From NCBI GenBank assembly GCA_964493785.1, contig CAZBPM010000002.1, positions 162,712-226,711 of the forward strand: a stretch of 64,000 nt of DNA. Reading direction: 5' to 3'. This DNA comes from an uncultured Hyphomicrobium sp. GTDB lineage: Bacteria; Pseudomonadota; Alphaproteobacteria; Rhizobiales; Hyphomicrobiaceae. The notes beneath the pieces are model-generated. The model saw only the letters and a list, made by a program, of their open reading frames with translations. It had not been told where the DNA came from and did no database searches. Position numbers and translations under genes: made by a program. Shown here one piece after another: positions 2,725 through 58,934 of this stretch; the stretch's first letter is position 1, and each line of letters starts with the position of its first letter.

Positions 2725-2750
2725 TCCTGCGAGCATACTCCCGCAGATCA
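2722..2750. terminator. Hairpin between convergent kinase genes, with both stop codons in its arms
   Basis: Arms tgatcctgcg / cgcagatca (9 of 10 paired) flank a 10-nt loop. It sits exactly between the convergent genes. Confidence 0.4.
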
Positions 2751-3746: not shown

Positions 3747-3750
3747 TGGC

Positions 3751-40983: not shown

Positions 40984-41073
40984 ATGTCACTCAGCTCCAA
41001 CGACCTCAACGGCCTTTTTGGATCGATGGACCTGTCGGTCTCCTCGTCTCGTCCGTTCCAAAGCGGGGGGTGA
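40984..41073 (+). CDS. Unannotated 29-aa ORF (MSLSSNDLNGLFGSMDLSVSSSRPFQSGG), translationally coupled to the GT2 gene
   Basis: AAGGGAGGA SD 8 nt before the ATG. About 79% GC3. The TGA stop overlaps the GTG at 41070 (GTGA). It is below the track's length cut-off. Confidence 0.35.
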   Translation: MSLSSNDLNGLFGSMDLSVSSSRPFQSGG

Positions 41074-42179
41074 AAGACATGGCGCTTCTCAGTGTTCTCA
41101 TTCCCGTCCGTAATCAGGAACGCTACGTCGAAATCGCAATCCGGAGCGTCCTAAGCCAATCCTATCGGGACTTCGTCCTCCTGATCATGGACGATGGCTC
41201 TTCAGACGCTACACCCGAGATCCTGAAGCGTTACGCGGCTCAGGACGACAGGGTCAAAATCTTCCTTCGCCCGCCACGCGGGCTCCCGACGACCAGAAAT
41301 AGTCTTCTGCGGCTTGCTCAGACGCCTCTCGTTGCATGGCTAGACTCTGATGACGTAGCGATGCCGGAGCGACTTGGACTGCAAGTCGCGGCCATGACTC
41401 GCGATCCCGCGCTTTGGCTTCTCGGAACCGCATTGGCCAGCATTGACGCCGAGGGGAACATCGCCAAGCAGGCCAACACGCTCACTGGCCCTGACGTAGC
41501 TCGCCAGATGCTTCAGGGCTGCAAGGTCGCGCAAACCTCGTGCATCATGAGGCGCGAGCCTGTGCTTGCCATCGGAGGCTACCGGCCCGCGTTCGACTGG
41601 TCTCAGGATTATGACCTTTTTCTACGCATCAGCGAACGCGGAAAGATCGACAACCTCGACTATGTCGGTGTTCATTACCGCAATCACGGTAACTCGATAA
41701 CCAACAGGAACAAGCTGATGCAGAACTTGCTCGCGGATCTAGCGCGGGCAAGCCACAAATTGCGGATGTCGTCGCGACCTGATCCGACAGATCTGCTCAC
41801 ACGGTGCCCTGATCTTTTCAACGACCCCGTTCTGGACGAACTGCTTGGTGAGCAAGTCAACATCTACCGTGCGATCCATCTCGCCTCGAACAGTCCGGGC
41901 GATTGCTCTGAGGCTCTGGAACTGCTGCTGCGAAACCAACCTAGCCGCAGACTGCAGCGGCAATACCAGGACGCGCTCCTAAAATTGCTGACGGAACGAC
42001 GCTTCGATGCGTTGAGCGCACGCGCTCTTTGGCGCGCGGCCACATTGGGCCCGGGGCGCGTCGTGCGCCGCTTGGCGACCTTACAGAGTTGGGCGGGCGC
42101 GGATGCCGAAGGCGCCGAAGCGCGCAGTAGTAGCAATCCTATTCCCAGGTCAAGGCTTCCCGGACACGCTCGTCACTGA
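41070..42179 (+). CDS. Family 2 glycosyltransferase with helical C-terminal domain
   Basis: LSVLIPVRNQERYV ... LIMDDGSSD ... WLDSDDV GT-A/DxD motifs. About 140 aa of helical tail. ATG 41079 is an alternative start. Confidence 0.85.
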   Translation: MKDMALLSVLIPVRNQERYVEIAIRSVLSQSYRDFVLLIMDDGSSDATPEILKRYAAQDDRVKIFLRPPRGLPTTRNSLLRLAQTPLVAWLDSDDVAMPERLGLQVAAMTRDPALWLLGTALASIDAEGNIAKQANTLTGPDVARQMLQGCKVAQTSCIMRREPVLAIGGYRPAFDWSQDYDLFLRISERGKIDNLDYVGVHYRNHGNSITNRNKLMQNLLADLARASHKLRMSSRPDPTDLLTRCPDLFNDPVLDELLGEQVNIYRAIHLASNSPGDCSEALELLLRNQPSRRLQRQYQDALLKLLTERRFDALSARALWRAATLGPGRVVRRLATLQSWAGADAEGAEARSSSNPIPRSRLPGHARH

Positions 42180-43689
42180 CGGCAAGAGCATCGGGCGCTG
42201 GAAATGGACGATGCCAATTCTCGAAGTCGAAGCGGCCCGTTTTGCGCGTCATTCGGCGATGGAACCGTCCCACCTGGGCGCGATAGTCGCGACGATCCTT
42301 TCCGACCTCTCCGATATTAGCCGTTGTGGCAGCAGTCGTGAGCGAACCGTCGCGTCGCAATTGCACGATTAGTGGCCTGGGGCACGCCGCAACGACACGC
42401 TTGCCGTAAAGTCTGACGAGGCGCTCAATATATTCAGCGTCTGCTTCGACGCGTACGCAATCCCAGTACCCGACCATCTGCAGTGCTGCAACGCGGCGGT
42501 ACATCAGCGACGGGTAGCACGTCGCCCTTAAAAGCGTGCCCGGCCGTACCAATTCAAATCGGCCCTGCTCCGACATGCGAACTCCAACGCAGTAGCACGC
42601 GACAGCCTGCCGATTTTCTTCAAGCAGCCGCACCTGCTGCTCGATGCGTTCTGGATGGCTCCAATCGTCGGCATCCTGAGTTGTCACATACACGCCTCGA
42701 GCCGCGCGCAGTGCGCGATTGCGCGAAACATATGTGCCGACGTTCCTTTTGTTCCGCAGGAGCCGGATGCGGCTGTCGCTGCGCGCAAGCGCATTTACGA
42801 GCTCCGCAGTGTGGTCCGTGCTGCAGTCGTCAACGACCAGAACCTCCAAATTGGCGTGGGTCTGCTGCAGCAATGATCGCAGCACCGCCGTCAAATAACG
42901 CTCGCCGTTAAAGCAGCTGACGATGACAGATACCAACGGTCCGTCGAGGCTTGTCGGCAGTGCGCTACGGAAACCAGTAAGCAGGTCAAATCGGTTCGAT
43001 TCGCCCTCCCCTGGATCCCGGAATTCCGGCGCCTCAAGCCCATCGCGCGTAAAAAACTCTTGCACGTGCGCGGTCCAACGCTCTTCAACGTCGATTTGTG
43101 CGGTGGCGCGTATCAGACACGCCTCCAGGTCCAGCGAGTGCTGTGCGCCCTGAAATGATTCTGACGGTCGCATGCTATCTAAGGTGCTTAGCGCGGCACT
43201 TGGCGCAGCCCCCGACGCTTGCAGTATAGCGAGTTGTACGACGTACTGCTTCGGCAGGCCGATGCCGCGGGCGCGCATCTCGTCCAGAAAACTTAAGGCA
43301 GCCGCCTTGTCGCCGACCGCGATCCCGCATTCGACAGCGAGCGCCGCGGGCCACAGCGCGCCTGGTTCCATGCGCGCCAAATTTGCCAACTGAAGCTTGA
43401 GCCGGTCAGGTGCGAACGCCTCGATGATCTGGCGAATGCCTTTCCGCGAGAAGGATAAGCTGCCGTCGTATGCGATTGCCTTCGGCATCAGGAGGCGTGT
43501 AAGCCCAAGCCATAAGGCCGCTCCCGAAGAGCGCGACGTTCTGAGAAACAAGGCCCTTGCCAATCGCGACCGCGTGCCGGTCAGCGCCGTGCGTGCGGCG
43601 CCCGGCAAACTCGTCGCCGCCGAAATGAGACGCTGCACTCGGTGGGCCCCAACTGATCTCCCAGCGTTGGGCGAGCTTGGCGCTTTCAT
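42139..43689 (-). CDS. Family 2 glycosyltransferase with ~250-aa N-terminal extension
   Basis: VSVIVSCFNGERYL ... VVDDCSTD ... TQDADDWSHPERI in the C-terminal half. The N-terminal half is helical with no recognised family. Confidence 0.8.
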   Translation of the reverse strand: MKAPSSPNAGRSVGAHRVQRLISAATSLPGAARTALTGTRSRLARALFLRTSRSSGAALWLGLTRLLMPKAIAYDGSLSFSRKGIRQIIEAFAPDRLKLQLANLARMEPGALWPAALAVECGIAVGDKAAALSFLDEMRARGIGLPKQYVVQLAILQASGAAPSAALSTLDSMRPSESFQGAQHSLDLEACLIRATAQIDVEERWTAHVQEFFTRDGLEAPEFRDPGEGESNRFDLLTGFRSALPTSLDGPLVSVIVSCFNGERYLTAVLRSLLQQTHANLEVLVVDDCSTDHTAELVNALARSDSRIRLLRNKRNVGTYVSRNRALRAARGVYVTTQDADDWSHPERIEQQVRLLEENRQAVACYCVGVRMSEQGRFELVRPGTLLRATCYPSLMYRRVAALQMVGYWDCVRVEADAEYIERLVRLYGKRVVAACPRPLIVQLRRDGSLTTAATTANIGEVGKDRRDYRAQVGRFHRRMTRKTGRFDFENWHRPFPAPDALAVSDERVREALTWE

Positions 43690-43766
43690 AGCTGAAACTC
43701 ACTCAATACCGGTCACCGGAAATCCAGCTCTCCTAAATCAGTCCGATCTTCCGACCAGCAGGTCTT

Positions 43767-45581
43767 CTAGGCGACTCGCGGCTCCCGAAATTGCAACCGA
43801 TAGAGGCGCGCGTAAGCCCCGTCGCGCGCCATAAGCTGCTCGTGATTTCCCGCCTCGACCATGCGTCCGCCGTCGATGACGTAGATCTTCTGGGCGTTCC
43901 TCACTGTGGCGAAGCGATGCGCGATTACGATGGTCGTACGTCCGACCATCAGTTTGCTCAACGTCTCCTGGATGATCTGCTCCGTCTCGCTGTCCAGAGC
44001 CGACGTTGGCTCGTCGAGCAGCAGGACCGGAGCGTTCTTTAAGAATGCGCGTGCGATGGAAATGCGCTGGCGCTGACCGCCCGAGACCATATTCCCCAGC
44101 TCTCCCACCGGCGTGTCGTAGCCGCGGGGCAACTGCTTGATGAAGTCGTGGGCGTGCGCTGCGCGCGCCGCCTTTTCGAGTTCCGCGTCGCTGCTATTGG
44201 GATTGACCGCCAGGAGGTTGTCGCGGACCGAGCCGTCGAACAGGAACACATCCTGGCTGACAACAGAGATGCTCTTGCGCCATGACGTCAGCGAAACCGC
44301 GCTTATCGGCTGGCCGTCGATCGAGACCACTCCGGCGGCCGCCGGCCAGAAGCCCTGAAGCAATCCGAAGATCGTGGATTTTCCGCCGCCGGACGCTCCG
44401 ACAAGAGCAGTCACCTCACCGCTCTTGGCCGTGAGCGAGACGTCGCTCAGGATGGGTTTGCCCTTACGGTAAGCAAAGTCCACATGGTCGAGCGCCACGT
44501 CGCCTCGGCGTATTAAAAGCGCCGGAGCGCTCGGTTTGTCAGGCTCCGAGACCGGCGTGTCGAGGATATCGAACATGAGTCCGACTCCCACCGACAGGTT
44601 GCGCAACTGCAGGTGAAACTTTGAAAGGCGCCGTGCAGGATCGGCGGCCAGCAGCAGAGCTGTGATGAATGCGATGAAGTTGCCGGGCGTCGTCACCCCC
44701 GAACTAAGCTGCATGCCGGTGTAGGCCACGACCGCCGCCACGGAGAGGCCGCCCAGCGTCTCGATCAGCGGATTGACGCCAGCCTGGACCGTCGCAACCT
44801 TGTTCGCGCTCGCCTCCATCGTGTCGATGGCGTTCTGCATGCGCTTGCGAAAGAGGTCTTCAAGCTGGAAAGATTTGATCAGCCTAATACCCTGGGCCGT
44901 TTCCCGCACTACTCCGATGGATTTTGCTGTCGTTGCCGCCTCGACCTGTCCACCTTTGCGCGCAACGTGTCCCATCCTACGGACGGCGAAGCCTGCGATC
45001 GGCCCAACGACCAGCACGACGAGTGACATCATCGGATCCTGGGTGACCATCACGATGATGAGCCCGATCAGCGTAAGCAGGTCACGACCGAAGCTGACAG
45101 CCACTAGGTTGAGCAGACTGCGGGCTGCGCTCGCCGCTCTCGACGTGCGCATGATCAGGTCGCTCGAGTTATAATCCTCGAAGAACGACACGTTCATGCG
45201 CAAAAGATGCTCGTAGATCTTTCTCTGGAAGTCGGCGACCAGTCGGCTGCCAATGCGGCTCAGCCAGAGCTCCTGGGTATAGGACGCGGCGCCTTTCACA
45301 ACGAAGATTGCGATGATGGCAATCGGAAGCCATGTTATCGCTGACTGGTCGCGTCGGACGAAGATGTCGTTGACGATGTCCTTCATCATCCATGCGGAGA
45401 GTGCGGTCGCCCCCGAAGCTATAGCCATGAGAAGAAGCGCGAGGGCGTAACGCCACGCATACTCTCGCCAACGTTCCTGCACCAAGCGCAGCACGACAGC
45501 CCAGGGCGAAACCGCAGCCGAGGATTTGCTCTTGCGGGGCATACCCGCCCCAGGCCTCGATTCTTGCATGTGCTCACCCAC
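43767..45581 (-). CDS. ABC exporter, fused permease/ATPase (MsbA/NdvA-like)
   Basis: Six-helix TMD. Walker A GASGGGKST, signature VSGGQRQRISIARA, Walker B LLLDEPTSALD. No C39 peptidase domain. ATG 45569 is an alternative start. Confidence 0.9.
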   Translation of the reverse strand: MGEHMQESRPGAGMPRKSKSSAAVSPWAVVLRLVQERWREYAWRYALALLLMAIASGATALSAWMMKDIVNDIFVRRDQSAITWLPIAIIAIFVVKGAASYTQELWLSRIGSRLVADFQRKIYEHLLRMNVSFFEDYNSSDLIMRTSRAASAARSLLNLVAVSFGRDLLTLIGLIIVMVTQDPMMSLVVLVVGPIAGFAVRRMGHVARKGGQVEAATTAKSIGVVRETAQGIRLIKSFQLEDLFRKRMQNAIDTMEASANKVATVQAGVNPLIETLGGLSVAAVVAYTGMQLSSGVTTPGNFIAFITALLLAADPARRLSKFHLQLRNLSVGVGLMFDILDTPVSEPDKPSAPALLIRRGDVALDHVDFAYRKGKPILSDVSLTAKSGEVTALVGASGGGKSTIFGLLQGFWPAAAGVVSIDGQPISAVSLTSWRKSISVVSQDVFLFDGSVRDNLLAVNPNSSDAELEKAARAAHAHDFIKQLPRGYDTPVGELGNMVSGGQRQRISIARAFLKNAPVLLLDEPTSALDSETEQIIQETLSKLMVGRTTIVIAHRFATVRNAQKIYVIDGGRMVEAGNHEQLMARDGAYARLYRLQFREPRVA

Positions 45582-45798
45582 CTATCGACACGCGATACAA
45601 AGCCGTCTTCGAGGGCCAATGCGGCCTGGAAGTACTCCCCCACGATATCCCGTAACATCTCGCCGCAAGTGGGGGCAATTGCTGCGTTTCGAGGACCTTA
45701 ATTCGACACGCGTCAGGTCGGGACAATGGACCCACCGGAGAGGCGGGCCGGTCAAGCAGGGCGGAATTGCGGCGGCGGGTCGTGCACCAATACATCGG

Positions 45799-47427
45799 CT
45801 ATCTCAGCAGCAATGCAGCGAATAGAAGATGCGAAACGGGGGAGCCGGCAGATGCGCTCGTGAGCTGCTGCATCTCGGCTGCCTTTCGCGCAACCGTTAC
45901 TGCCTGATCGACGTACTCGGTCCGGAACAGCCCGCTGCGCCGCAGTCCGCCTTCATGACGAAGGAGGTCGTCGAGCAAGCGGGACCAGATGTCCTGATGG
46001 CCGTCGGCCGCGTCCCCCACGTCAGGCTCACCAGGCGAAGTTGACGTGTACACGATGCCCGGCTGAAGCCGATCGAGCGCATTCCTGATGTCCGTGAAGT
46101 CCCGCTTGTGCCGCCTGTCAGGTGCCTTACCGCGCGTGTCGTATGGCATATCGACGATGCCCTGCGCGCAATTCATCATCAGGTCGACAAGGAATTGCGC
46201 GCGCTTACGCTGCTTTGGTGGGCAAATGGCCGACGCCCTCCGGAAGAAGGAGCTAGAAAGTGGGGAGGCCTGATAGATGTACTGTGGCGAGCGGCCTCCG
46301 TGCATTCGATCGCGATAGTGGCGATAGTGCAGTGTAAGTGGATCGAGGTCGGCCTCGAACCCGCGCTGGAGGCCGGCGATGTCGCTCAACACCGCAGCGC
46401 GAAACTCCTCGAAATGATTGCCGGATGAAAAGACGCCGCGCTGCGCGTCCAGCATCCTTGTCAGCGTACGAGATCTGAAGAACGGCCGATGGGCTTCTCC
46501 TCCGGCTCCACCGATGGTGAGCGACATCGGATTGGGATGCTTCGACGGAAAGTAGATGGGTGTATAGATGCCAAGGCAGAGACGCCGCCACCGTTCGTAT
46601 GCGCCACGGGCTGTCAAAGGCCTATCCAGATGATGCCGGCGGCGCGAGTTCAGCGCGAGCCCGTAGTGCTTTGCCAGGCCTTTGGCGATCGCAAGATCTT
46701 GTTGCGCGGTTTCCTTGCTGACAAAGGTTACCCTGCTGAACCCTGCCGAGGACCGCTGCGCCGCTGCGAGCAGAAGGCTCAGTACCGCGCGAGAGTCTCG
46801 TCCTCCGGTCAATTTGCACGCGACGTCGAGATCGGACATTACGAGCGCGCCCATGCGGGCCACCCAGACTCGAAGCGATTCCGCCAATGCATCGGCGTAG
46901 CTGGGGCCTCTGAGATCCAGCTCTTCTACGCGATCTGTACGGGCCGTCGCCAATGAACGCTTTTTGGTGACCGGGTCCTCGCGAACGATGGCCTGCTCGG
47001 TTGCGGGGATGAGCCGGATTTCGCCCACCGCCGTCTGCAAAGAAGCAATCTGGTTTCCGAAGGCGCCCGGGATGAAGAATCCCGCCAGATGTGCGGACCG
47101 GAGTGTAACGGGTAGCGATCTAGCGCGGGCATACTCAACCAACGATACAATAGAGTTTGAGAGGGCCCAGGCATCTCCCGATCTGTAAGCGAACAGTTTA
47201 TAGTAGCCGCTGAAGTCGGTTCCTATTGTTGCCGAACCCTCGTGCGCATTGACGACGATGTACGCTCCATCTTCCCCGGGCTCGATACGTTTTCGTTCAC
47301 GCTCGGCATACTTCTGATACCCCAGGTCGCCGACAACCACGTCGGATCCAGTGAAGCAGACACCAATCAGCTTCCGTTGGGGCAGCACGCCGTCATGCGA
47401 GAACAGAACGTCGTCAGACTCTTGCAT
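45799..47427 (-). CDS. Asparagine-synthase-like PP-loop adenylating enzyme lacking the N-terminal Cys nucleophile
   Basis: PP-loop CKLTGGRDSRAVLSLLLAA in the middle of a 542-aa protein. The N-terminus MQESDDVL has no Cys2, so it is not a class II glutaminase. Confidence 0.6.
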   Translation of the reverse strand: MQESDDVLFSHDGVLPQRKLIGVCFTGSDVVVGDLGYQKYAERERKRIEPGEDGAYIVVNAHEGSATIGTDFSGYYKLFAYRSGDAWALSNSIVSLVEYARARSLPVTLRSAHLAGFFIPGAFGNQIASLQTAVGEIRLIPATEQAIVREDPVTKKRSLATARTDRVEELDLRGPSYADALAESLRVWVARMGALVMSDLDVACKLTGGRDSRAVLSLLLAAAQRSSAGFSRVTFVSKETAQQDLAIAKGLAKHYGLALNSRRRHHLDRPLTARGAYERWRRLCLGIYTPIYFPSKHPNPMSLTIGGAGGEAHRPFFRSRTLTRMLDAQRGVFSSGNHFEEFRAAVLSDIAGLQRGFEADLDPLTLHYRHYRDRMHGGRSPQYIYQASPLSSSFFRRASAICPPKQRKRAQFLVDLMMNCAQGIVDMPYDTRGKAPDRRHKRDFTDIRNALDRLQPGIVYTSTSPGEPDVGDAADGHQDIWSRLLDDLLRHEGGLRRSGLFRTEYVDQAVTVARKAAEMQQLTSASAGSPVSHLLFAALLLR

Positions 47428-47504
47428 AGGTATTCCGGTCGCCGTGTTTCGCGAGAGTCCAGCTCGCTTGCGAAGACGCAGCGCACGTTGCTTCCAGGCC
47501 CAGA

Positions 47505-48557
47505 TTACGCTTTCTCAAGAACCCAAGCCTTCCTTGCGCGTCCGTGGTGAATTTCACGAGCAGACGAGAACATTCCGTTGGCTGCGAAAGCACGGTATTC
47601 ATCGTCGGCGTTGATCTCCACCTCTGCCAGGACGAACTTCCGAATGTTCTGGGCCACTACCGCGAGACTACGTTGCAGAGATCTTGGGTCGCCTCGCTTC
47701 AGGTGCACGATCGCAGTATCGAACGCCGCGTCTCGCCCCAAAGTGCTCAAGTCGCCGTCGACTCGATAGGAAACGCTTGGATAGGCGCCATCGAACATCG
47801 CGAGGCGGGTCGCAAGATTGACCAACCGTGGCGACGTCTCCAATCCTACGCACTCCCTTGCGCCTCTCGCTTTCGCAAGCAGGCACGCCGTGCCTGCGTT
47901 GCAACCAATGTCTAGAACTGTCTTGTCTTCCAAGGTTTCGCGCGGCGCTGCCGCAATCCAGTGACGGACTTCTCCTGCTTGGCCGCGTGCGACCAACTCG
48001 CCTCTAAGGTAGATACTCTCCTTCGGTCGCTCGAACATGCCTCCATCGAAAAACTCAGGCGCCTGGGAATACATCATCAGCGCGAGATCGACCGGGAGGC
48101 GTTCGCACGCTATCGAGCGGTTCAGCGCCGCGGCAAATGACAGGCGATGATTGCCGTCGAGCGCGAAGGGAACCTTGGATGCAGCGAGGGTGACGAGCGT
48201 TGGGCGGGGCATAGCGATGCCCTTCTCATACGCCCGAAAGTGACCGGCAAATGCCCTTACTCGACCTGCAAACTCGGCTCTGCGGTCCTCGCCCCAACTC
48301 GCTGCGAGGTATGACGAATAGAATTCTTCAGCTTTCGAGAGATCAGCCTTTCCAGCCAGTGCGGCTGCCAACTGATAGTGCGGCGTATCCTTGATCGTCA
48401 CATCGGTCCGGCCAAGCCGGTTGTAGAAGAACTCCGCCGTCGACGCCTTGAACTGGTAGAAGCCGAGCTCTCCCACCTCGCTTGCGCCTATATGCACGAT
48501 CCGCCGCTGGATCAGGCGACGCAGTTGGCGCACACGCTTGGCCCCGACAAGCTTCAT
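47505..48557 (-). CDS. Two-domain protein with C-terminal class I SAM-methyltransferase fold
   Basis: VLDIGCNAGTACLLAKARGARECVGLE (motif I) in the C-terminal half. The start codon abuts the upstream stop. Confidence 0.6.
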   Translation of the reverse strand: MKLVGAKRVRQLRRLIQRRIVHIGASEVGELGFYQFKASTAEFFYNRLGRTDVTIKDTPHYQLAAALAGKADLSKAEEFYSSYLAASWGEDRRAEFAGRVRAFAGHFRAYEKGIAMPRPTLVTLAASKVPFALDGNHRLSFAAALNRSIACERLPVDLALMMYSQAPEFFDGGMFERPKESIYLRGELVARGQAGEVRHWIAAAPRETLEDKTVLDIGCNAGTACLLAKARGARECVGLETSPRLVNLATRLAMFDGAYPSVSYRVDGDLSTLGRDAAFDTAIVHLKRGDPRSLQRSLAVVAQNIRKFVLAEVEINADDEYRAFAANGMFSSAREIHHGRARKAWVLEKA

Positions 48558-49430
48558 CTATGCACGCAATCGGACGTGATCAGCGGAGGCAAACGGGCAC
48601 GCTTCCAGAAGGCGCCCTGACACTGGTGAGAGGTCGATCCTGTCCGCAGCAGAGGCTGCTTCTAAAAGAGCCATCGTTGCGGTCGGCGAACGCGGATCGA
48701 CTATGATCGCCTTCTGGGGCGCGAGGCCTGCACCGAGAAAGTAATCATCGAACTTGAAGCTCCCACCGATCACCTTATCCGACAGGACGATGCGCGCGGC
48801 AGGAACGCCATAAGCTTGCGCGATGATGATGCCGTGCAAGGAGGAAGATACGACCGCGTCGCAGGACGCAATGTCGTCGACAACGGGCTCAACGTCTCGC
48901 CGCACGTCGATGATCCGCACGTCTTCGCGATTGCCGAAAAGCGCTGATGCCAGGTCGAAATCCTTGAAGTGGGGCACAATCCCCAGCCGCTGCGTTCTCG
49001 TCTTCAAGCGCGGGGTGTAAAATCGCGGCAGCAGAATGCCAGGATCGCCGTAAACCTCTGGGCAGCTGTAGCCGAGACGGGTGCAGATCTCCCGCGAGAG
49101 GGGGCCTCGAACGGCATGGATGATCTTCGGCGCGGGGAACCGGGCATCCGGCTTTATGGCGCCACTTCCCCAGACGATCGCCTGCCCCGATTGGCGGATG
49201 TGGCCCAGGATGCTGCCGCATGTGAGATGATATGCGCCGAGCCGACGCTTGCGGGCATCCCGAAAGTGCGGTCGACGCCCTGTCAGCTTCTCGAACAGAT
49301 ACGGCCCAATCCAATCGCCGAAATTGATGCCATCAGGTTCCTTGTAATACCAATATAGACTGCGACCGGAAGCGATACCGCTGCGGGCAAGAAGGTCTGA
49401 TGGCCTGAAGCTATCCAGCGCATTCGCCAT
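48558..49430 (-). CDS. Polysaccharide pyruvyl transferase family protein
   Basis: INFGDWIGPYLFEKLTGR, GSILGHI, VWGSG, VVSSSLHGIIIAQAYGVPA. The start is trimmed to ATG 49430, and it still overlaps the upstream GT2 by 20 nt. Confidence 0.8.
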   Translation of the reverse strand: MANALDSFRPSDLLARSGIASGRSLYWYYKEPDGINFGDWIGPYLFEKLTGRRPHFRDARKRRLGAYHLTCGSILGHIRQSGQAIVWGSGAIKPDARFPAPKIIHAVRGPLSREICTRLGYSCPEVYGDPGILLPRFYTPRLKTRTQRLGIVPHFKDFDLASALFGNREDVRIIDVRRDVEPVVDDIASCDAVVSSSLHGIIIAQAYGVPAARIVLSDKVIGGSFKFDDYFLGAGLAPQKAIIVDPRSPTATMALLEAASAADRIDLSPVSGRLLEACPFASADHVRLRA

Positions 49431-50403
49431 CGGTGCCCCCCTTGATCTGCAGTCTGCGTACGTCAGACCTTCGGCCGGTCCATTCACCGTAACGCATGGC
49501 TGCAATCGTTCCATGCTTGGCGGCCTTGCGTACATTCAGGCTTACGGCGCCGCCGATTGCTTTGAGTGCGTGCACCGCGACTTTGCGAAAACCGGCGAGT
49601 TCGTCGCTTCTGCCTAAGCATGAAAGGCGCGCGGCGCGCGATCGTCCGATCCTTGCGTAGCGCTTCAACACTTCGGTGAAGCGCAGCTCGTGCGGCTTGA
49701 TGACATGGAGCACGAGAGCAGCCGGCGCGAATATCAGCGAGTTCTCTCTGCCCCGCAAAACCTCATAAGCGAACCGGACATCTTCACCACCAAATCCCCC
49801 CGCTACTCCAAAATTGTTCGAACCTTCATCAAACCTGTGTGTCGTCCCCACTGCCGATTTGCGGACCATGAGGTTCGCACCCTTGGCTTGGCTTGCACTG
49901 CATGGTCCCTCCGGGCGATCCTTGGGGCTGCACCCGTACGACAGACCGATATTCGTTAGATGCACTAGCCAATGCGGGGGCTTGGCGCAGGGCCATGCCG
50001 GCCTGATCTGCCCCGTGAACACGTCATGTCCGGGAAACCGATCGGATGCATCGCGGAAGGCTTGCAACCAGGTGCCTGACGGGATGATGTCGTCGTCGAT
50101 AAAGACGACCAATTTTCCGCGGGCTTCCGAAAGCCCCCGGTTCAGGCCAAACGATTTTCCCTTACGCGGCTCAGCTATAAGTCTGATTGGAAGGCCTGCA
50201 TTGGACACATAGTCCGTAACGGCCTCTATCGTTCGGTCGCTGCTTGCATTGTCGATTATAAGCAGCTCGGACTGGCCGGCGGCGCGCATCGCTTCAAACA
50301 CGGCCGGTAGCGTATCGCGAAGACGCGCATGTCCGTTGTGGGTTGTGATGATGACGCTGATTTCAACGTCGTGCGCGCTCCGATGTGGCTGCTTGATTTC
50401 CAT
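49411..50403 (-). CDS. Family 2 glycosyltransferase
   Basis: ISVIITTHNGHARL ... LLIIDNASSD ... VVFIDDDIIP GT-A/DxD motifs. 3 nt downstream of hlyD. Confidence 0.85.
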   Translation of the reverse strand: MEIKQPHRSAHDVEISVIITTHNGHARLRDTLPAVFEAMRAAGQSELLIIDNASSDRTIEAVTDYVSNAGLPIRLIAEPRKGKSFGLNRGLSEARGKLVVFIDDDIIPSGTWLQAFRDASDRFPGHDVFTGQIRPAWPCAKPPHWLVHLTNIGLSYGCSPKDRPEGPCSASQAKGANLMVRKSAVGTTHRFDEGSNNFGVAGGFGGEDVRFAYEVLRGRENSLIFAPAALVLHVIKPHELRFTEVLKRYARIGRSRAARLSCLGRSDELAGFRKVAVHALKAIGGAVSLNVRKAAKHGTIAAMRYGEWTGRRSDVRRLQIKGGTDGECAG

Positions 50404-50406
50404 CGA

Positions 50407-51720
50407 TCACCTTTCGCGGAAAGCGCGAGAGAACTGATCTTCGATGGGCTTTACGAGATAGGACAGCGCGGTGCGGTCGTGCGTTTTGATGTGCACCTCG
50501 GCCGGCATGCCCGGAACGAGCTTGCCGCCGTTGAGACGCTTCAGCTCGGCTTCCGTGATCTCAATGCGGCCGGTGTAATAGCTATCACCGGTTCGCGGAT
50601 CCTGCGCTAGGTCGGCCGATATCGACTTGATGGTGCCGACGAGCTCGGGCGTCGTGCGCGTGTTGAAGGCCGCAAAGCGAAGCATCGCTGTGCGGCTGGC
50701 GATCACCTGATCGATGTCATGGGGTGAGATCTTCGCCTCGACCACCAGCTTGTCGCTATCGGGCACGATGAGCAAAACCGTCTCGCCAGCATTGATCACC
50801 CCTCCGACGGTGTGAACGGCAAGCTGGTGCACCATACCGGACTGCGGTGCCTTAAGCTCAACACGCTTCAGCTGATCCTCGGCGGCAACGCGCCGCTCGC
50901 CGTACTCGGCGAGCTTGCTCTGCGTCTCGCGCAGCTCCTTAACGACCTCGGTGCGTGCATCCTGATCTATGCGCAGGATTTGTAGCTCGATCTCCGTCAC
51001 GCGCCCGCGCGTCTGGGCCGCAGAAGATTTGAGCTGGCCGTGCTCACCTTCCAGCCGGGCTGCCTCCCGGCGCAAGGCCACCATGGTGGAAGCCGTGACG
51101 AGTTTCTTTTCTTCGAGCGTCTCCAGGTCTTGGAGCTGCTTGGCAATAAGTTGTATCTCGCGCGCCTTGGCGTCGATCTGCCCGGATATACCGGCGAACT
51201 CCTGGTCGAGCTGGCTGATGCGCTCTCGAAGCTGCGACTTCTGCCCTTCCCGAGAGTCGCGGCGGCTGTCGAACAGATTGCGCTCACCCTTGAGGATCTC
51301 TTCTACATCAGCATTGGTAGCAGACGCCGACAATGCCTTAGGCAGAAGCACCTCTCGCGTACCGTCGCGCTCGGCGACCAGGCGCGCTTCGCGGATGGTC
51401 AACTCGCTGAGCTGCTTAGTGATCATCTGCAGATTGGCGCGCGTCACCGTCTCATCAAGCCGCAGCAGCAGATCGCCGGCGTGCACGAAGTCGCCATTCT
51501 TGACGAAAATCTCGCCGACGATGCCGCCCGAGGGATGCTGTACCTTCTTGACGTTGCTCTCTACGACAACGGTGCCCTGCGCGATCACTGCTCCGGCAAT
51601 CTCGGTCTGCGCGGCCCAAACGCCGACGCCGCCGACGAGCGCGAATATGATGGCGAAGCCCGCCACAAGATAGCGACCGACGCGGCCGAGATCGCCCGGG
51701 AGGGGATTGCGGTCGCTCAT
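50407..51720 (-). CDS. HlyD-family type I secretion periplasmic adaptor
   Basis: N-terminal TM helix, long coiled-coil region, and C-terminal VPGMPAEVHIKT lipoyl/beta-barrel strings. 3 nt downstream of the ABC gene. Confidence 0.9.
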   Translation of the reverse strand: MSDRNPLPGDLGRVGRYLVAGFAIIFALVGGVGVWAAQTEIAGAVIAQGTVVVESNVKKVQHPSGGIVGEIFVKNGDFVHAGDLLLRLDETVTRANLQMITKQLSELTIREARLVAERDGTREVLLPKALSASATNADVEEILKGERNLFDSRRDSREGQKSQLRERISQLDQEFAGISGQIDAKAREIQLIAKQLQDLETLEEKKLVTASTMVALRREAARLEGEHGQLKSSAAQTRGRVTEIELQILRIDQDARTEVVKELRETQSKLAEYGERRVAAEDQLKRVELKAPQSGMVHQLAVHTVGGVINAGETVLLIVPDSDKLVVEAKISPHDIDQVIASRTAMLRFAAFNTRTTPELVGTIKSISADLAQDPRTGDSYYTGRIEITEAELKRLNGGKLVPGMPAEVHIKTHDRTALSYLVKPIEDQFSRAFRER

Positions 51721-51723
51721 GGC

Positions 51724-53523
51724 CTAAGCCCCCTGACGGTCGCCGACGACCTTGAGACCGGAACTCGGTGGAGCGCTCTCGGCACGCTGAGCCCGGGCGC
51801 CCTCGCCCGCCACCGGCTGAAGCAGGCGCCGCAGCGCCTCGTCCTTGGGACCGAAAGCCTGCACGCGGCCTCCGACAAGGCCCAACACCTTGTCGACCGC
51901 GACAAGGGCGGAAGGCCGGTGTGCAACGACGACGACAATGCCACAGCGCTTGCGCACCGACAGCATGGCTTCCGTGAGGGCCGCCTCTCCAACCTGGTCC
52001 AGATTGGAGTTGGGTTCATCCAGAACGACAAGGAACGGGTCGCCGTAGAGCGCGCGAGCGAGCGCGATGCGCTGACGCTGCCCGGCCGACAGAAGCATCC
52101 CGCCTTCGCCCACCTGCGTCTGATATCCCTTCGGCAGGTGCACGATCATGTCGTGCACTCCAGCAGTCTTAGCGGCATCGACGATCGCAGCATCCTCGGG
52201 GTTCTCATCGAAGCGCGCGATGTTGTCAGCGACCGTGCCTTCGAACAGCTCGATACCTTGCGGCAGGTAGCCGATGTGGCGGCCCAGCTGTTCGGGGCGC
52301 CACTGGTCCAGCGCCGCGCCATCGATGCGTACGACGCCGCCATTCGGAACCGGCTGCCAGGCGCCAACGAGCGCGCGCACCAAGCTCGACTTGCCCGATC
52401 CGCTCGGACCGATAATGCCGAGGCCGTCGCCGGCCGCCAGCCCGAAGCTGACGCCCTGCAACACCGGCCGGTCACCACCGGGAGGTACCACGGTGAGGTT
52501 TTCCGCGATCACGTTGATCTTCGGCGCCGGAAGCTCAAGCAGTTCCTCGCCCTTGACGCCGACGACCTTGAACAGCTCGACAAGCCGACGATGCGACTGG
52601 CGAGCTCCGACAAAGCCGCGCCAATGCGTGATCGACGTCTCGATCGGAGCCAGCGCGCGCGACATGATGATCGAGCAGGCAATGATCGCTCCACCCGAGA
52701 GCTTGCCCTCGATGACCAGCAGCGCGCCGAGCCCCAACATGCCGGACTGCAGCAACATGCGCAGAACCTTGGAGATCGTGCCGACGCCGCCCACGGCATC
52801 GGATGCCTTGAGCTGGTTTGCTAGGTGGGCCGTGTTCAGCTTCTCCCAGCGCTTCTGGAGCTGGCCACCGAGCCCCATAGCGCGCACCACTTCGGCGTTG
52901 CGCCGCGCCGCCTCGCCGAATGCCAAACGCTGCGAAGCGCTTTGTGAAGCCTCGCGCATCGGCCCAGCGCTGCGCATCTCCGTCCACGCGGTCAACGCGA
53001 TGAGAAGCATCGCGCCGGCCAAGCTGAACGCCCCGAGCCATGGGTGCAGCAGGTAGATGATGGTGAGATAGACGGGGATCCACGGCAGGTCGAACAGCGC
53101 TGTCGGGCCCAGGCCAGACAGGAACGATCGGATCTGATCAAGGTCGCGGATCGGCTGAAGTCCGTCACCGGATTTGCGGAAGCGCAGTGGCATCGACTGC
53201 ACCGCCGCGAAGGTATCCTCACGCAGCGCGCTGTCGATTCTCACCCCAACGCGGCTCATCACTCGGACACGCAGGAAGTCCAGCATGCCGTTGGCCATAT
53301 AGAGGCCGGCCATCAGCACAGTGATGCCGACCAGCGTCGGAATACTGCGCGAGGTCAGGACCCGGTCGTAGACCTGCAGCATGTAGAATGAGCCGGTCAG
53401 CGCCAGGATATTGATGACGCCGGAGAACACGGCGACGCCAGCCAGCGCGAGCGAGCAGCGATAAATCGCTGCCCGCACCGGGCTTTTGCGCCAGTTCGCC
53501 GCTTGCTCCCTACGCATGGTCAT
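51724..53523 (-). CDS. Type I secretion system permease/ATPase (PrtD/AprD-like, no C39 domain)
   Basis: INILALTGSFYMLQVYDRVL N-terminal TMD signature. Walker A GPSGSGKSS, signature LSAGQRQRIALARA, Walker B VVLDEPNSNLD. Confidence 0.9.
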   Translation of the reverse strand: MTMRREQAANWRKSPVRAAIYRCSLALAGVAVFSGVINILALTGSFYMLQVYDRVLTSRSIPTLVGITVLMAGLYMANGMLDFLRVRVMSRVGVRIDSALREDTFAAVQSMPLRFRKSGDGLQPIRDLDQIRSFLSGLGPTALFDLPWIPVYLTIIYLLHPWLGAFSLAGAMLLIALTAWTEMRSAGPMREASQSASQRLAFGEAARRNAEVVRAMGLGGQLQKRWEKLNTAHLANQLKASDAVGGVGTISKVLRMLLQSGMLGLGALLVIEGKLSGGAIIACSIIMSRALAPIETSITHWRGFVGARQSHRRLVELFKVVGVKGEELLELPAPKINVIAENLTVVPPGGDRPVLQGVSFGLAAGDGLGIIGPSGSGKSSLVRALVGAWQPVPNGGVVRIDGAALDQWRPEQLGRHIGYLPQGIELFEGTVADNIARFDENPEDAAIVDAAKTAGVHDMIVHLPKGYQTQVGEGGMLLSAGQRQRIALARALYGDPFLVVLDEPNSNLDQVGEAALTEAMLSVRKRCGIVVVVAHRPSALVAVDKVLGLVGGRVQAFGPKDEALRRLLQPVAGEGARAQRAESAPPSSGLKVVGDRQGA

Positions 53524-53541
53524 GAACGGACTGCAGCGTGA

Positions 53542-54156
53542 TTACGCGGCGTCCTTCTCTTTGACTTCCAGATGGCCGACCGACAGCTTCCCGTCACGGC
53601 CACGCACGCGCATCTTGGGCTTGCTGTCCTTGAACACGCTGGCATTCAGCTGCTGGATGAGGCCGGCCAGAACGCGCATGTCGCCGCTCGCCAGGATGAT
53701 CCACGGAATGTCTCCCGAGCGCCATTCGTTCGGCTTGAGGCGCAGCGGCGTCGCCACGTCGGACAGCCGCTTGTCAACCTCCTCCGACACGAACGCCCAA
53801 AGCACGCCGCCTACCGGGCTGACCATGCCGGTTTCCTTGGACTGCGCCTCGGCCAGCGCGAACTGACGGTGCATCAGCCCGGGCACGAGCAGCCACTCGA
53901 GGTCACCCAGCGTGTGGTGCTTGTCAGCGGGAGAGCGCATGAGCAGCGTGACGAATTCGCCGAATGCCGCCGCGATCTGTTTGGCGGCAGCGGCACGCTT
54001 CTTTGCCTCCTCGGCGTCGAGATGCACCGCAGCCGGCTCGGACGCGGTGGTGGCCGGCGTAGCAGGAACGGGCGCCGCGCCATTGAGCGGCGGCATCGCG
54101 CCGGTGTCCGCCGGCTTGCTGCTTTCCTCGCTCGTGGATTTCTTGCCAAAAATCAT
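53542..54156 (-). CDS. HlyC/CyaC-family toxin-activating acyltransferase-like protein with Ala/Pro-rich N-terminal extension
   Basis: By-eye alignment to recalled E. coli HlyC: SP..H block, LVPGLMHRQFALA vs VLPAIQANQYVLL, PVGGVLWAFVSEEVDKRL vs PVAYCSWANLSLENEIKYL, EWRSGDIPWII vs DWTSGDRKWFI. Sits in the hlyC position upstream of the B/D genes. Confidence 0.6.
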   Translation of the reverse strand: MIFGKKSTSEESSKPADTGAMPPLNGAAPVPATPATTASEPAAVHLDAEEAKKRAAAAKQIAAAFGEFVTLLMRSPADKHHTLGDLEWLLVPGLMHRQFALAEAQSKETGMVSPVGGVLWAFVSEEVDKRLSDVATPLRLKPNEWRSGDIPWIILASGDMRVLAGLIQQLNASVFKDSKPKMRVRGRDGKLSVGHLEVKEKDAA

Positions 54157-54858
54157 TCTGGTTACTCCCTAGGTATTGTTGTCGAGGCCGGCGCGGCATT
54201 CGTGCCGGGCGGCTTATTGTTAGGCGTCGTAAGATTTCCGGTCGGTCAGCGCGATTTCGAGCACCAGGTCACGTCTTAAGCTGGAGGCAAGCCGCCCCCG
54301 GGCGCCGTCCACCGGTGACGGTCGCGTCACGTCCGCGATTGGTTCGATCAGGCGCGCCGAATGCCTTGGAAGCACAGCGCTATTTGCACCCTTGTCTGCC
54401 GATGGGTGCCTACCCCAAAAACAGAGCCTCCCTAATTCCGCGCCTCTTTTCAGATGGGCGCTTTGACACATTGAACTAAATTTAGATGCTATCTCCCGCG
54501 ACCGTGCGCCCTGGTGCAAGGTACTTTTAGGACTTGCAAGCAACCTTGCCATTGCCTCCCGATCCCCGTCGGGAATTTGTGGCGGTCAGCAGCGGGATTT
54601 GCCGGAGATCGTGGTTATTTGTTCTCCCGGTGCCTGCTCCCACTGGTTCCCATCAGAGGGCGAGAGACCGGCAAGGAGGCACGCGGCCGTGCAGCCGCTG
54701 TCGTGGCGGCACCGTTGCGACCCAAACCGATTTGAAGGCAGCGTGGGATGCACGCGGCGCCCGGCGGGGTGCCGCGTCTGCATCGTGGCGAAAGCTATGA
54801 GGCGACGCTCCCCCGCGGCACCGCCGTGCCCAAGAGGGCGATGCCCGGTTGTCCGCAG

Positions 54859-55422
54859 CTAGCCGCGATCGTCCGGTCCGCTCCAACGGGACAGTCGGAT
54901 GAAGCCGTAGAAGAAGCCGACCCAGATGAGGATGGAGAGGCCGTAGAAGCCAATGGTTCGCAACGACCACAGCGGCCAGGAGCCGGCGGCACCGATGGCA
55001 ATCACGTTGGGGTAGAACGAGAAGAGCGTCGAGCGCCACCCGTTCCACATAACAGTGACTTCCTGCTTGCGAGACTCGAACGTCTTGGCATCATTGAAGA
55101 CGCGCTCGCTGTTGCGCTTCAACCACCACCAGGAGTCCTCGTTGATGAGCTCGAGCCCCCGGTCGTTCCGGTTGCGCATGTAGATGTATCGGATGTCGTT
55201 CGTATTGCCGCGGGCGTCGGGGCTGCTGCGGCGAACCTCGGTTCCGGTCACGAGCCCGGAGGTCCAGGTGGGGCGAGCGTACTCCCATGCGAACCAGAGG
55301 GGGATACCGACCGCGAGCGAGGCGAAAGCCAGTACGACGGCTCCTCTTCGCCATAGGACGTAGGCCAGAACGACGATCGCCAGCAGGACGATGTAGCCGT
55401 AAGACATCCAGGCCTGGAGCAT
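54859..55422 (-). CDS. Small Trp-rich membrane protein (TM helices at both ends)
   Basis: Hydrophobic helices at residues ~8-50 and ~150-175, with a soluble middle WWWLKRNSERVF. The overlapping plus-strand ORF translates to low-complexity junk. Confidence 0.6.
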   Translation of the reverse strand: MLQAWMSYGYIVLLAIVVLAYVLWRRGAVVLAFASLAVGIPLWFAWEYARPTWTSGLVTGTEVRRSSPDARGNTNDIRYIYMRNRNDRGLELINEDSWWWLKRNSERVFNDAKTFESRKQEVTVMWNGWRSTLFSFYPNVIAIGAAGSWPLWSLRTIGFYGLSILIWVGFFYGFIRLSRWSGPDDRG

Positions 55423-55578
55423 GCCTCAAACCTCACCTTGAGCTATGTCGCAGCGATCGACCCGCAGCGGCTTGACGTGGTCTCGAGCGTTTCGGCCCCG
55501 TCCGAGGGTCGCCCCGTGGCGGATTCTCAGCCGCTCGCGAACCGGCCAGCGGACCCTATGGCAGCTTTCTCCGTTCGG

Positions 55579-58500: not shown

Positions 58501-58713
58501 CTTGTAGGGGTTCGAGGCCGATCCGTCGCCGTCGGAGGCGGTGTCGACATGCAGGGCACACGTGGGAATGGTTGTAGCGCGCGCCACCGTCACGGGCTTG
58601 GGTATGGCGGCTGCAGTCGAGGGCAACTCTTTGGCGGCTGACGCGCCCGAAAAGCCGATAATCGCTAGCAAAGTCAATACCACCGGCTTGCGCCCGTTCA
58701 TTGCAGATCTCAT
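55579..58713 (-). CDS. Secreted protein with two right-handed parallel beta-helix domains joined by an Ala/Pro-rich linker
   Basis: Sec signal peptide. A pectate-lyase-like cap string appears in each half (SASNPYKTIAAAVDAAEPGTIICVAEGVY, and later TTPKDAIASAAPGTKIHFLPGTY). N/G-rich beta-helix rungs. Linker AAPTPKVAAPAAPAPAPAKA. Confidence 0.8.
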   Translation of the reverse strand: MRSAMNGRKPVVLTLLAIIGFSGASAAKELPSTAAAIPKPVTVARATTIPTCALHVDTASDGDGSASNPYKTIAAAVDAAEPGTIICVAEGVYPEQIKPGEKHFTLAGGFKRGSGFAIRDSATFVSKAQGQGTGSFISITETAGPKGLTAIDGFEITGYSQAILRDYWEPQRFEVTNNFIHDNKCDADNKAGAGVALVNVSGTIKGNVFKTNACARGGAVFLNGPTNDSDILLENNWVEGNSGTEPGASHGGAFYLFANKLTVVGNAFIDNKVTMWGAGLYIGAFTPGNQFTTATISWNVYRGNRAGDSGGGFFCDDGATCHSSHEVYDKNCGGNVLVDGGSGGSGPTTATFDYVTSVGALDVDCKAPGIGLYVDTYEALAQDSYKITNSIFWNNAAGRDFATACGSGCKQIKVSVDHSMADTNYADGSIKIAFADMVKPADPKFVAPDKGDFRLQDGSPAAGLGTYGGIDAAALAASPPSPPLAAPTPKVAAPAAPAPAPAKANAAAEGISAQQAFEAAKALNTAEGWQLFIESYPTGFYAEIARGFLKKLGAAAPPAIVPKAAKASDRSEAAPATAPRGEAEAATPGVAQPPAIKRGAAYMGFPERFNRYYTDPSWMPSKTIYASVKGGGDGSSRESATTPKDAIASAAPGTKIHFLPGTYDACYELDKDKSGTYDDPVVIYGERNSDGSLGVKINCCSSGRHTCINLEAADYVAVDGFELAGGKFGVRSIGAGYPASEHARGVAVLNNNGHDQDRDPFFSGQVDWAVWENNVGSGAKKGDGHGIYLSNGGDWNIVRFNETFKNSSSDFQINADPASTCQEVGIPFNDARCDAYAGEGEGGQGASDYFLIDGNYFHDSEVGPNFTSVRRSIVRNNIIGPQKRHNASFWQETDNPKLGSSDNKILHNLFITTQRHGVKFEVNSTRNEFANNIILGITPEGAANPKALLMEVDDTAGDNVYRDNLYISGHLEGREVAGEETALEDFDPAWFARFSTALNRDPNAFTPGANSPALGRGKLLSDATADRNGAARTDPTALGPIEAR

Positions 58714-58934
58714 CAGGCTTGATCCATTCGAGCGTCTAGGTTGGCCTGCACGGCGATTGAGAACGTGGAGGTGGACGACCGGACTTAACCGCGTTCAGTA
58801 ACAGTCGGTTCAACGCCCGGCCCGCAGTTCGGAAGCGTTGCGGCCTGACAGAGGTGCAACTAGGATCAACAACGTCCATACGTTGGTGTTTCCAGGTCAT
58901 TTAAGCACAGCGGCGATTTCGGAGCGGATATTCC

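Follow-up and report, generated by a model that had tools for sequence, protein, structure and literature searches.

Type I secretion systems and surface glycans

That a type I secretion system (T1SS) and its RTX cargo can be embedded among surface-glycan genes, and functionally tied to them, is already known from Sinorhizobium, Rhizobium and Caulobacter. Here we describe a locus of this general kind in a 64,000-nt stretch of DNA (the window) from an uncultured Hyphomicrobium sp. (contig CAZBPM010000002.1), obtained from a groundwater metagenome (SRR2177362). What sets the window apart is that genes for a HlyC-like protein, an ATP-binding cassette (ABC) transporter and a HlyD protein (hlyC-B-D) are physically fused to a glycan-decoration cassette, that a gene with the toxin-activating acyltransferase (TAAT) fold stands in such a context, and that the cargo is a giant subtilase-cadherin-RTX protein. 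In the searchable literature we came across no description of a T1SS-glycosyltransferase operon arranged in this way.

In Sinorhizobium meliloti, the T1SS genes expD1 and expD2 and the gene for the secreted Ca-binding protein ExpE1 are located in the galactoglucan cluster, and the polysaccharide depends on them (PMC1403797). The exp (wge/wgd) cluster resembles the window in having a PrtD/HlyD-type T1SS and a Ca-binding substrate among glycosyltransferase genes (ExpE2/E4/E7), and its product is a pyruvylated, acetylated glycan (galactoglucan, or exopolysaccharide (EPS) II) whose production is functionally linked to secretion (PMC1403797). A sequence-only reading of the window had contrasted it with rhizobia, in which T1SS and EPS genes were taken to form separate units. 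With expD1, expD2 and ExpE1 inside the galactoglucan cluster, this contrast was overstated (PMC1403797). The exp cluster has no hlyC-like gene, and its substrate is a small NodO-like protein, whereas that of the window is a 2545-aa subtilase/cadherin protein. expD and expE are separate operons (PMC1403797), whereas in the window the genes for a family 2 glycosyltransferase (GT2), a pyruvyl transferase and a methyltransferase (MT) trail hlyD by 3, -20 and 0 nt. As in exp, the T1SS and the Ca-binding protein of the window lie inside a block of glycosyltransferase and decoration genes. A complete assembly pathway was not found in the window, only an MsbA-like ABC exporter. Becker et al. are also said to have reported, in 1997, that expD and expE are separate operons.

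In Caulobacter crescentus, rsaD and rsaE adjoin rsaA (PMC3034196), and RsaA binds the O-antigen of the lipopolysaccharide (PMC6978808). Here too an RTX protein is exported by a PrtD/HlyD-type T1SS, and RsaA needs a specific surface glycan. The Caulobacter system is without an acyltransferase, whereas the window has a TAAT-fold gene. O-antigen synthesis genes reportedly lie near rsaADE, an observation credited to Awram and Smit in 2001. In Rhizobium leguminosarum, prsDE place a T1SS beside EPS genes in the Pss region, and PlyA and PlyB act on or bind the polysaccharide (PMC1403797). prsDE differ from the window in being separate transcription units with small glycanase/adhesin substrates, and pss has the full Wzx/Wzy-type machinery that is missing in the window.

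The classical RTX operons, hlyCABD and the MARTX genes rtxHCA-rtxBDE, share with the window a TAAT-fold C gene together with B, D and an RTX substrate. The order in the window is C-B-D...A, not C-A-B-D, with glycan genes inserted, and its ABC protein is of the PrtD type, without the N-terminal C39-like domain. The substrate in the window is giant and protease/adhesin-like, not a pore-forming toxin, and the catalytic His/Asp columns of the C protein are not conserved.

A probable fused operon

Six minus-strand open reading frames (ORFs) run from 54156 to 47505 with successive gaps of 18, 3, 3, -20 and 0 nt, followed by gaps of 77-217 nt. These spacings and gene calls, given in the sequence-only reading, are borne out by the sequence and by profile searches. 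The genes of the locus are as follows.

53542..54156, minus strand: HlyC-like/TAAT-like protein, 204 aa (PF02794), with a ~60-aa Ala/Pro-rich N-terminal extension
51724..53523, minus strand: PrtD-type T1SS ABC permease/ATPase, 599 aa (TIGR01842)
50407..51720, minus strand: HlyD-family T1SS membrane-fusion protein, 437 aa (TIGR01843)
49411..50403, minus strand: GT2 glycosyltransferase (GT2_330), 330 aa (PF00535); opens the cassette of low GC content at third codon positions (GC3)
48558..49430, minus strand: polysaccharide pyruvyl transferase, 290 aa (PF04230)
47505..48557, minus strand: methyltransferase-domain protein (MT350), 350 aa; class-I S-adenosylmethionine (SAM) domain (Methyltransf_23/25)
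45799..47427, minus strand: AsnB-class two-domain PP-loop enzyme, 542 aa (AlphaFold2 model and Foldseek)
43767..45581, minus strand: MsbA-like half-transporter ABC exporter, 604 aa (TIGR02203, below cutoff)
42139..43689, minus strand: GT2 (GT2_516), 516 aa (PF00535), with a 250-aa N-terminal region of unknown type
41070..42179, plus strand: GT2 (GT2_369), 369 aa, convergent with the operon; orthologues beside hlyC in three other lineages
32402..40039, minus strand: presumed T1SS substrate, 2545 aa (Peptidase_S8, P-domain, cadherin and RTX by Pfam)

The hlyC-like stop codon TAA is followed after 18 nt by the ABC start codon (ATG at 53523), and the ABC stop codon TAG after 3 nt by that of HlyD (ATG at 51720). 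Between the HlyD stop codon TGA and the GT2_330 ATG at 50403 is a 3-nt spacer (TGATCGATG). The pyruvyl transferase ATG at 49430 lies inside the 3′ end of the GT2 gene, giving a 20-nt overlap, with a Shine-Dalgarno-like run (AAGGGGGG) 5′ of it. The pyruvyl transferase stop codon TAG (48558) in turn abuts the methyltransferase ATG (48557), so that the junction reads TAGATG. The later gaps are 77 nt from the methyltransferase to the AsnB-like gene, 217 nt to the MsbA-like gene and 77 nt to the GT2 gene at 42139-43689. In total, ~10.4 kb of glycan genes stand between hlyD and the RTX gene.

A terminator or promoter would not fit into the gaps of 3, -20 and 0 nt; thus, the first three cassette genes would be read from the hlyC promoter. 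Judged by this spacing, they are almost certainly co-transcribed from it and translationally coupled. Tight spacing is an ordinary operon signature. The unusual part is which genes are joined.

The RTX gene and GT2_369 start divergently, ~1 kb apart, and the intervening region (40040-41069) presumably serves as a separate promoter region for the RTX gene. It contains short ORFs only, with no Pfam match; one of 105-107 aa (40208-40531, plus strand) is called as a gene in the source assembly.

Conservation of the secretion unit and recurrence of the fusion

The HlyC-like protein has ~150 relatives, Bradyrhizobium and Hyphomicrobium included. We compared the genetic contexts of relatives at 54-75% identity and of 80 metagenome loci, onto which a protein panel was mapped. 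The recurring unit consists of a hlyC-like gene, a PrtD-type ABC gene, hlyD and a giant gene of S8/P-domain/cadherin/RTX type. In L084 and L089/L090 the S8-RTX gene begins 23-26 nt after hlyD, and in L173 a fragment of the RTX gene follows hlyD up to the contig end. Two Bradyrhizobium genomes and L096 have the order A-C-B-D, and Hyphomicrobium has A-C. At more distant loci the genes after hlyD are unrelated, e.g., formate-THF ligase, a convergent UDP-glucose dehydrogenase, or L,D-transpeptidase. Since the substrate gene lies directly after hlyD in close relatives, the glycan genes of the window occupy its place.

The exact fused gene order was found in one sister lineage. L175 (from a JGI sample) and L174 (from another run) keep the gene order of the window from hlyD through the MsbA-like gene, with a nucleotide identity of 86% over this part. 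At the protein level the identities are 96% for HlyD, 88% for the GT2, 91% for the pyruvyl transferase, 89% for the methyltransferase, 84% for the AsnB-like protein and 92% for the MsbA-like protein. The spacing of 3, -20 and 0 nt is unchanged and the junction sequences are almost identical. The fusion is therefore no single-strain accident, and the inference of one transcription unit in the sequence-only reading is judged sound, with the same junctions in a second lineage at 86% nucleotide identity. That reading had named a lack of synteny beyond one strain as one of the things that would refute it, and this did not come true, as the order is kept in the sister lineage. The order is absent in every other relative examined. 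Collinearity ends just past the MsbA-like gene because GT2_516 is inverted in the sister lineage. This gene is co-directional with the MsbA-like gene in the window (42139-43689), and in L174 (6712-8262) it is co-directional with GT2_369 and convergent to the MsbA-like gene; its counterpart in L175 is at 7994-8272. Around GT2_516 we found a single 15-nt pair of inverted repeats, probably due to chance, and no convincing flanking repeats.

Other arrangements of glycan genes occur beside hlyC in the nearest relatives. In L084 and L171, genes for a GT25, a GT4/GT2 fusion, an MsbA-like protein and an overlapping GT2 lie directly 5′ of hlyC. The MsbA-like protein of L084 is 52% identical to that of the window over its full length, and the L084 GT2 is 40% identical to GT2_369 and 63% identical to the GT2 of L171. 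In L083, genes for a PIG-L protein, a GT25 and a GT2 (49% identical to GT2_369) are downstream of hlyC. A hidden Markov model (HMM) of the GT2 domain, run on all 36 hlyC-anchored loci that are 8 kb or longer (together 625 kb), found GT2 genes in 4/36, all in the clade closest to the window; none of the 32 distant loci has a GT2 gene nearby. GT2_369 orthologues are present in 4/4 glycan-bearing lineages and MsbA-like orthologues in three of them (the window lineage, L084 and L171). Thus, the exact gene order is lineage-specific, and an MsbA-like/GT2 pair accompanies this T1SS clade repeatedly, in three arrangements. L171 also encodes a transglutaminase-core protein (2158-3060) 5′ of its GT25/GT4-GT2/MsbA-like/GT2 block, which we did not see in the otherwise similar L084.

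Giant Peptidase_S8 + P-domain + cadherin + RTX proteins of 2100-2750 aa are paired with a TAAT-fold gene in L085/L086, L087, L088, L096, L095, L084 and L089; L084 has two giant S8-RTX genes. Carriers of this module include Bradyrhizobium sp. HKCCYLRH3099, B. ontarionense, Hyphomicrobium sp. LHD-15 and many metagenomes. The S8-RTX/TAAT-fold module is apparently conserved and unstudied.

Origin and content of the glycan cassette

The hlyC-like, ABC, HlyD and RTX genes have a GC3 of 0.76-0.83, and 17 host housekeeping genes one of 0.76 +/- 0.03. The MsbA-like gene is host-like (0.76). In contrast, the genes for GT2_330 (0.64), the pyruvyl transferase, the methyltransferase, the AsnB-like protein, GT2_516 and GT2_369 have a GC3 of 0.64-0.68 (Mann-Whitney p = 3e-6 vs. 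the rest). Homologs of four cassette genes are also found together in L176/L177, with identities of 56% for the GT2, 64% for the pyruvyl transferase, 45% for the methyltransferase and 57% for the AsnB-like protein. The cassette is again a low-GC3 island there (0.52-0.61 vs. 0.70-0.81 in the flanks), and we found no T1SS gene on the 10.4-kb L176 contig. By its composition and occurrence, the GT2-pyruvyl transferase-MT-AsnB-like set is a foreign, portable cassette that was presumably acquired horizontally. As it is foreign by composition and exists without a T1SS, an insertion or operon fusion specific to the lineage accounts best for its coupling to the secretion genes, and not an ancient integrated machine. 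Searched by megablast against plasmids, the 6.6-kb block had no counterpart. A 541-aa ORF 5′ of the cassette in L176 was considered as a paralog of the AsnB-like gene and rejected (hhalign probability 0.2%).

The GT2_330 family is rare, with 32 matches at E < 1e-10 among 5.8e9 proteins. The pyruvyl transferase matches PF04230 at 46.4 bits (cutoff 25), and its best match among GTDB representative genomes is 47% identical. Homologs at or below this identity occur in Flavobacteria, Rhodobacterales and archaea. In 80 representative genomes they lie in ordinary polysaccharide loci and none is beside HlyD or HlyC. The N-terminal half of MT350 has no Pfam match, and a sequence search of the PDB matched the SAM-binding motif alone. 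The extra domains of GT2_516, MT350 and GT2_369 have no match in Pfam at E ≤ 1.

The AsnB-like protein matches Asn_synthase weakly by sequence (E = 7e-4). Its AlphaFold2 model (pLDDT 88.5) gave Foldseek hits to TsnB9, beta-lactam synthetase, carbapenam synthetase and AsnB (E 7e-11 to 1e-6). The Foldseek probability is 1.0 to 7YLZ, 1MBZ, 1Q19, 9B6C and 1CT9, which indicates a two-domain fold with a PP-loop ATP pyrophosphatase domain. The PP-loop motif TGGRDS aligns with SGGLDS of human ASNS. The protein lacks an N-terminal Cys nucleophile, as it begins MQESDD and there is no invariant Cys among the conserved columns of the family; in this it resembles the beta-lactam and carbapenam synthetases. 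Together with these two enzymes, TsnB9, a hydroxyamidotransferase, is closest to the model. The family comprises 24 proteins in 5.8 billion, including those of Microvirga terrestris and M. terrae. The pairing of an AsnB-like protein with ABC genes also raised the possibility of a lasso-peptide cluster. The sole support for it is a weak NCBIfam match to a macrolactam cyclase family (24 bits vs. 300), and we rejected it: there is no B protease/RRE and no transglutaminase-like or PqqD-like gene in the block.

The secretion proteins and the HlyC-like protein

The ABC protein matches the PrtD model TIGR01842 at 710.6 bits (cutoff 510) over nearly the whole profile (5-543/544; residues 24-566/599). 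The HlyB and LssB models fall below their cutoffs, which places it in the PrtD class, with neither a peptidase nor a CLD domain at the N terminus. The ABC proteins of L084 and L089 share 75-76% identity with it. HlyD matches TIGR01843 at 400.5 bits (cutoff 208.7). The 2545-aa protein has PF00353 repeats in 14 stretches (E = 2e-75), the C-terminal nonapeptide (RTX) repeats expected of a T1SS substrate, and it is predicted to be secreted. We found no OEP/TolC family member among the large ORFs of the 64-kb window. A TolC-type factor is often unlinked, so its lack in the window is no argument against a T1SS.

The HlyC-like protein passes the family threshold of PF02794 (58.7 bits vs. 25, E = 7e-16, residues 64-183); no NCBIfam model matched it. 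The top three Foldseek hits of its AlphaFold2 model (pLDDT 79.9) are the ApxC 4WHN chains (E = 2e-8 to 1e-7, TMt 0.63-0.66) and the next match has an E-value of only 0.17, which points to the TAAT fold. The gene is adjacent to B-D in the window and adjacent to the S8-RTX gene in at least nine related loci.

The catalytic role of the TAAT dyad, His23/24 and Asp92/93, was reportedly described by Trent et al. in 1999 and Greene et al. in 2015. In a HMMER alignment to ApxC and a MAFFT alignment with Escherichia coli HlyC (100% identical to the plasmid hlyC), the canonical residues are not at the aligned positions: the His23 column holds Asp78 and the Asp92 column Leu155. These alignments are at only 20-25% identity, at which a local register shift is possible, and His81/His82 and Asp159, 3-4 residues off the dyad columns, might substitute. 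With the dyad columns not kept, substitutes nearby and identity this low, acylation of the RTX protein is not to be assumed. By family and fold the protein is a candidate acyltransferase.

The change at the His column is a property of the whole HlyC-like subfamily that accompanies S8-RTX proteins, in which this column is Asp/Glu; the Asp column is variable (Leu, His, Met, Ala or Thr). In P0032, P0043, P0049, P0070 and P0085 the His column is Asp/Glu and the Asp column is His, as though the dyad were swapped. The plasmid TAAT homologs of Rhizobium, Phaeobacter and Methylovirgula retain the catalytic Asp. A TBLASTN of the HlyC-like protein and of GT2_369 against plasmids gave distant matches only (≤41% identity), and the three annotated TAAT contexts (Methylovirgula, R. 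leguminosarum and Phaeobacter) have no glycan genes. The Methylovirgula sp. 4M-Z18 plasmid (L178, NZ_CP149575, 143276-157540) encodes a TAAT protein, a hypothetical protein, a 3459-aa DUF4082 protein and a peptidase-domain ABC transporter, and is a further non-toxin context for a HlyC-type gene.

Possible function of the fused locus

On balance, we lean toward an operon fusion specific to this lineage, through which a decorated, lipid-linked surface glycan and a secreted RTX protein would be expressed together. The ancestral unit would have been hlyC-like/PrtD-ABC/HlyD serving the giant subtilase-cadherin-RTX protein, whose gene normally abuts it. A horizontally acquired cassette (GT2, pyruvyl transferase, MT-domain protein and an AsnB-fold adenylating or amidating enzyme) would then have been placed directly behind hlyD, beside the MsbA-like exporter and two more GT2 genes, leaving the RTX gene 10.4 kb away with its own upstream region. 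The gene products would most likely build a short saccharide on a lipid carrier at the cytoplasmic face and decorate it with a pyruvyl ketal, methyl groups and possibly an amide. The MsbA/PglK-like ABC exporter would act as the flippase that moves this saccharide into the periplasm. We found no Wzx, Wzy, PCP, OPX or priming transferase in the 64-kb window. Three GT2s, decoration enzymes and a half-transporter without a polymerase, chain-length regulator or outer-membrane exporter suggest a short lipid-linked saccharide and not a classical Wzx/Wzy exopolysaccharide. The surface glycan would be made alongside the secreted Ca-binding RTX protein as its anchor, ligand or matrix partner. By analogy with the described systems, such a partnership is most likely the purpose of the glycan. 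The sequence-only reading had offered three functional options, and of these the co-production of a glycan partner is the best supported.

Several observations weigh against this explanation. The case for co-transcription is one of spacing only. Half of the closest lineages and 32/32 distant loci have no glycan genes beside the module; with most relatives' modules lacking them, the secretion system does not need the glycan genes. The cassette is present without a linked T1SS in L176. There is no priming transferase, ligase or polymerase in the 64-kb window. Finally, the MsbA-like protein scores below the MsbA equivalog cutoff (TIGR02203 478 bits vs. 602; NF008381 374 vs. 867), so that by profile it appears MsbA-like in fold class only.

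A rival is neutral hitch-hiking, in which a mobile cassette of glycan genes came to lie behind hlyD and read-through expresses it, with no functional tie between the glycan and the RTX protein. We regard this as unlikely, while giving it real weight. Polysaccharide loci are hotspots of horizontal exchange, and the cassette is a low-GC3 island both in the window and in L176, where it is T1SS-less. Further, 32/36 hlyC loci are without a GT2 gene nearby, and the pyruvyl transferase homologs in 80 genomes are never beside HlyD or HlyC. However, a chance landing fits poorly with glycan genes beside hlyC in four lineages of the closest clade, in three arrangements, with GT2_369 orthologs in all of them and MsbA-like orthologs in three (the window lineage, L084 and L171). 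It also fits poorly with junctions that have stayed intact down to 86% nucleotide identity although a neighboring gene was inverted.

The glycan genes may alternatively act on the cargo itself. While the RTX protein is still unfolded in the cytoplasm, ahead of its type I export, the GT2s would glycosylate it, the glycan would carry pyruvyl and methyl groups, and the HlyC-like protein would acylate the same RTX protein, giving a lipo-glyco-protein. We consider such direct modification distinctly improbable. The glycan genes are co-operonic with the secretion machinery, the extra non-catalytic regions of GT2_516 (250 aa) and GT2_369 (~140 aa) could bind protein, and the HlyC-like gene is tightly linked to the RTX family in at least nine loci. 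The RTX surface proteins SwmA and oscillin have been reported to be glycosylated (PMC3034196). On the other hand, a flippase-type ABC exporter travels with the glycosyltransferase genes and overlaps the GT2 gene in L084/L171, which suggests a lipid-linked glycan that crosses the inner membrane and not the route of a T1SS substrate. To our knowledge, every PF04230 enzyme characterised so far has a saccharide as its substrate, either of a polysaccharide or of a lipid-linked glycan. The cassette occurs in L176 without a T1SS or RTX gene, the Bradyrhizobium RTX homologs have no glycosyltransferase genes nearby, and the canonical TAAT dyad is absent in the HlyC-like protein. The option of an acylated and glycosylated RTX protein is thus weakened by the flippase-type exporter and by the lack of canonical His/Asp at the aligned HlyC-like positions. 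Its most specific form, a doubly modified cargo in this Hyphomicrobiales-like clade that is glycosylated by GT2s in the cytoplasm, modified by a non-canonical TAAT-fold enzyme and then exported by PrtD/HlyD as a lipo-glyco-RTX surface protein, seems to us a shade less probable still.

The least likely rival, to which we give very little credence, is that the PrtD/HlyD pump itself exports the glycan or glycolipid made by these genes or is needed for its export. In its favor, mutation of expD1/expD2 in S. meliloti blocks both the synthesis and the secretion of galactoglucan (PMC1403797). Against it, that block is exerted via secreted ExpE1, the ABC protein of the window is by profile an ordinary protein exporter of the PrtD type (TIGR01842, 710 bits), the locus has a separate MsbA-like exporter, and in most relatives this pump works for RTX genes that have no glycan genes beside them.

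If the coupling of glycan and RTX genes in the operon fusion is functional, the locus would offer a compact natural case of one promoter serving both a secreted RTX surface protein and the glycan that partners it, with a small, portable decoration cassette of four genes on the glycan side. The locus also brings into focus the widespread S8-RTX/TAAT-fold module in Bradyrhizobium, Hyphomicrobium and many soil and groundwater metagenomes. A TAAT-fold protein without the textbook dyad, found beside subtilase-cadherin-RTX proteins and not pore-forming toxins, raises the question of its role. Neither the fused locus nor the TAAT-fold module overturns present understanding, as links between T1SS and glycans were established before.

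Flanking regions and the rest of the window

Upstream of the hlyC-like gene are the following features.

54157..54858, minus strand: non-coding stretch 5′ of the hlyC-like gene, 702 nt; likely operon promoter/leader, with no gene called in L081, which holds the window's own copy
54859-55422, minus strand: DUF1523 membrane protein (Pfam DUF1523)
55579-58713, minus strand: beta-helix protein, 1044 aa, with a Sec signal peptide and matches to Beta_helix, DUF1565 and DUF5123

An alignment of the regions 5′ of hlyC from six loci revealed no shared element, and a search of the whole window against Rfam gave no match at gathering thresholds. A search for sigma-70 consensus-like promoters in the 19 kb from 40000 to 59000 found 0, vs. 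4.0 +/- 1.7 in shuffles, a consensus that is uninformative for an alphaproteobacterium-like genome of 61% GC. The shortage probably reflects the promoter style of GC-rich alphaproteobacteria and not the biology of the locus. Terminator-like sites are at chance level, which is likewise uninformative at 61% GC.

The 1044-aa protein has two beta-helix regions and an Ala/Pro-rich linker. It and the DUF1523 protein that follows are encoded just 5′ of the hlyC promoter region. Both genes may belong to the glycan context, and the beta-helix protein might cleave the same glycan, as a glycanase or lyase. In the related loci, a TBLASTN panel found these two proteins only in L081, the window's own copy. 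A LuxR/GerE regulator gene is divergent from them.

The rest of the window is taken up by housekeeping genes, which encode a pyruvate dehydrogenase complex, lactate utilisation proteins, pyrroloquinoline quinone (PQQ) dehydrogenases, KaiC and HWE kinases, and a TonB receptor. At 1558-5265, a 504-aa KaiC-family ATPase and two HWE histidine kinases, one with a receiver domain, are encoded together in what looks like a KaiC-based signalling module unrelated to the fusion.

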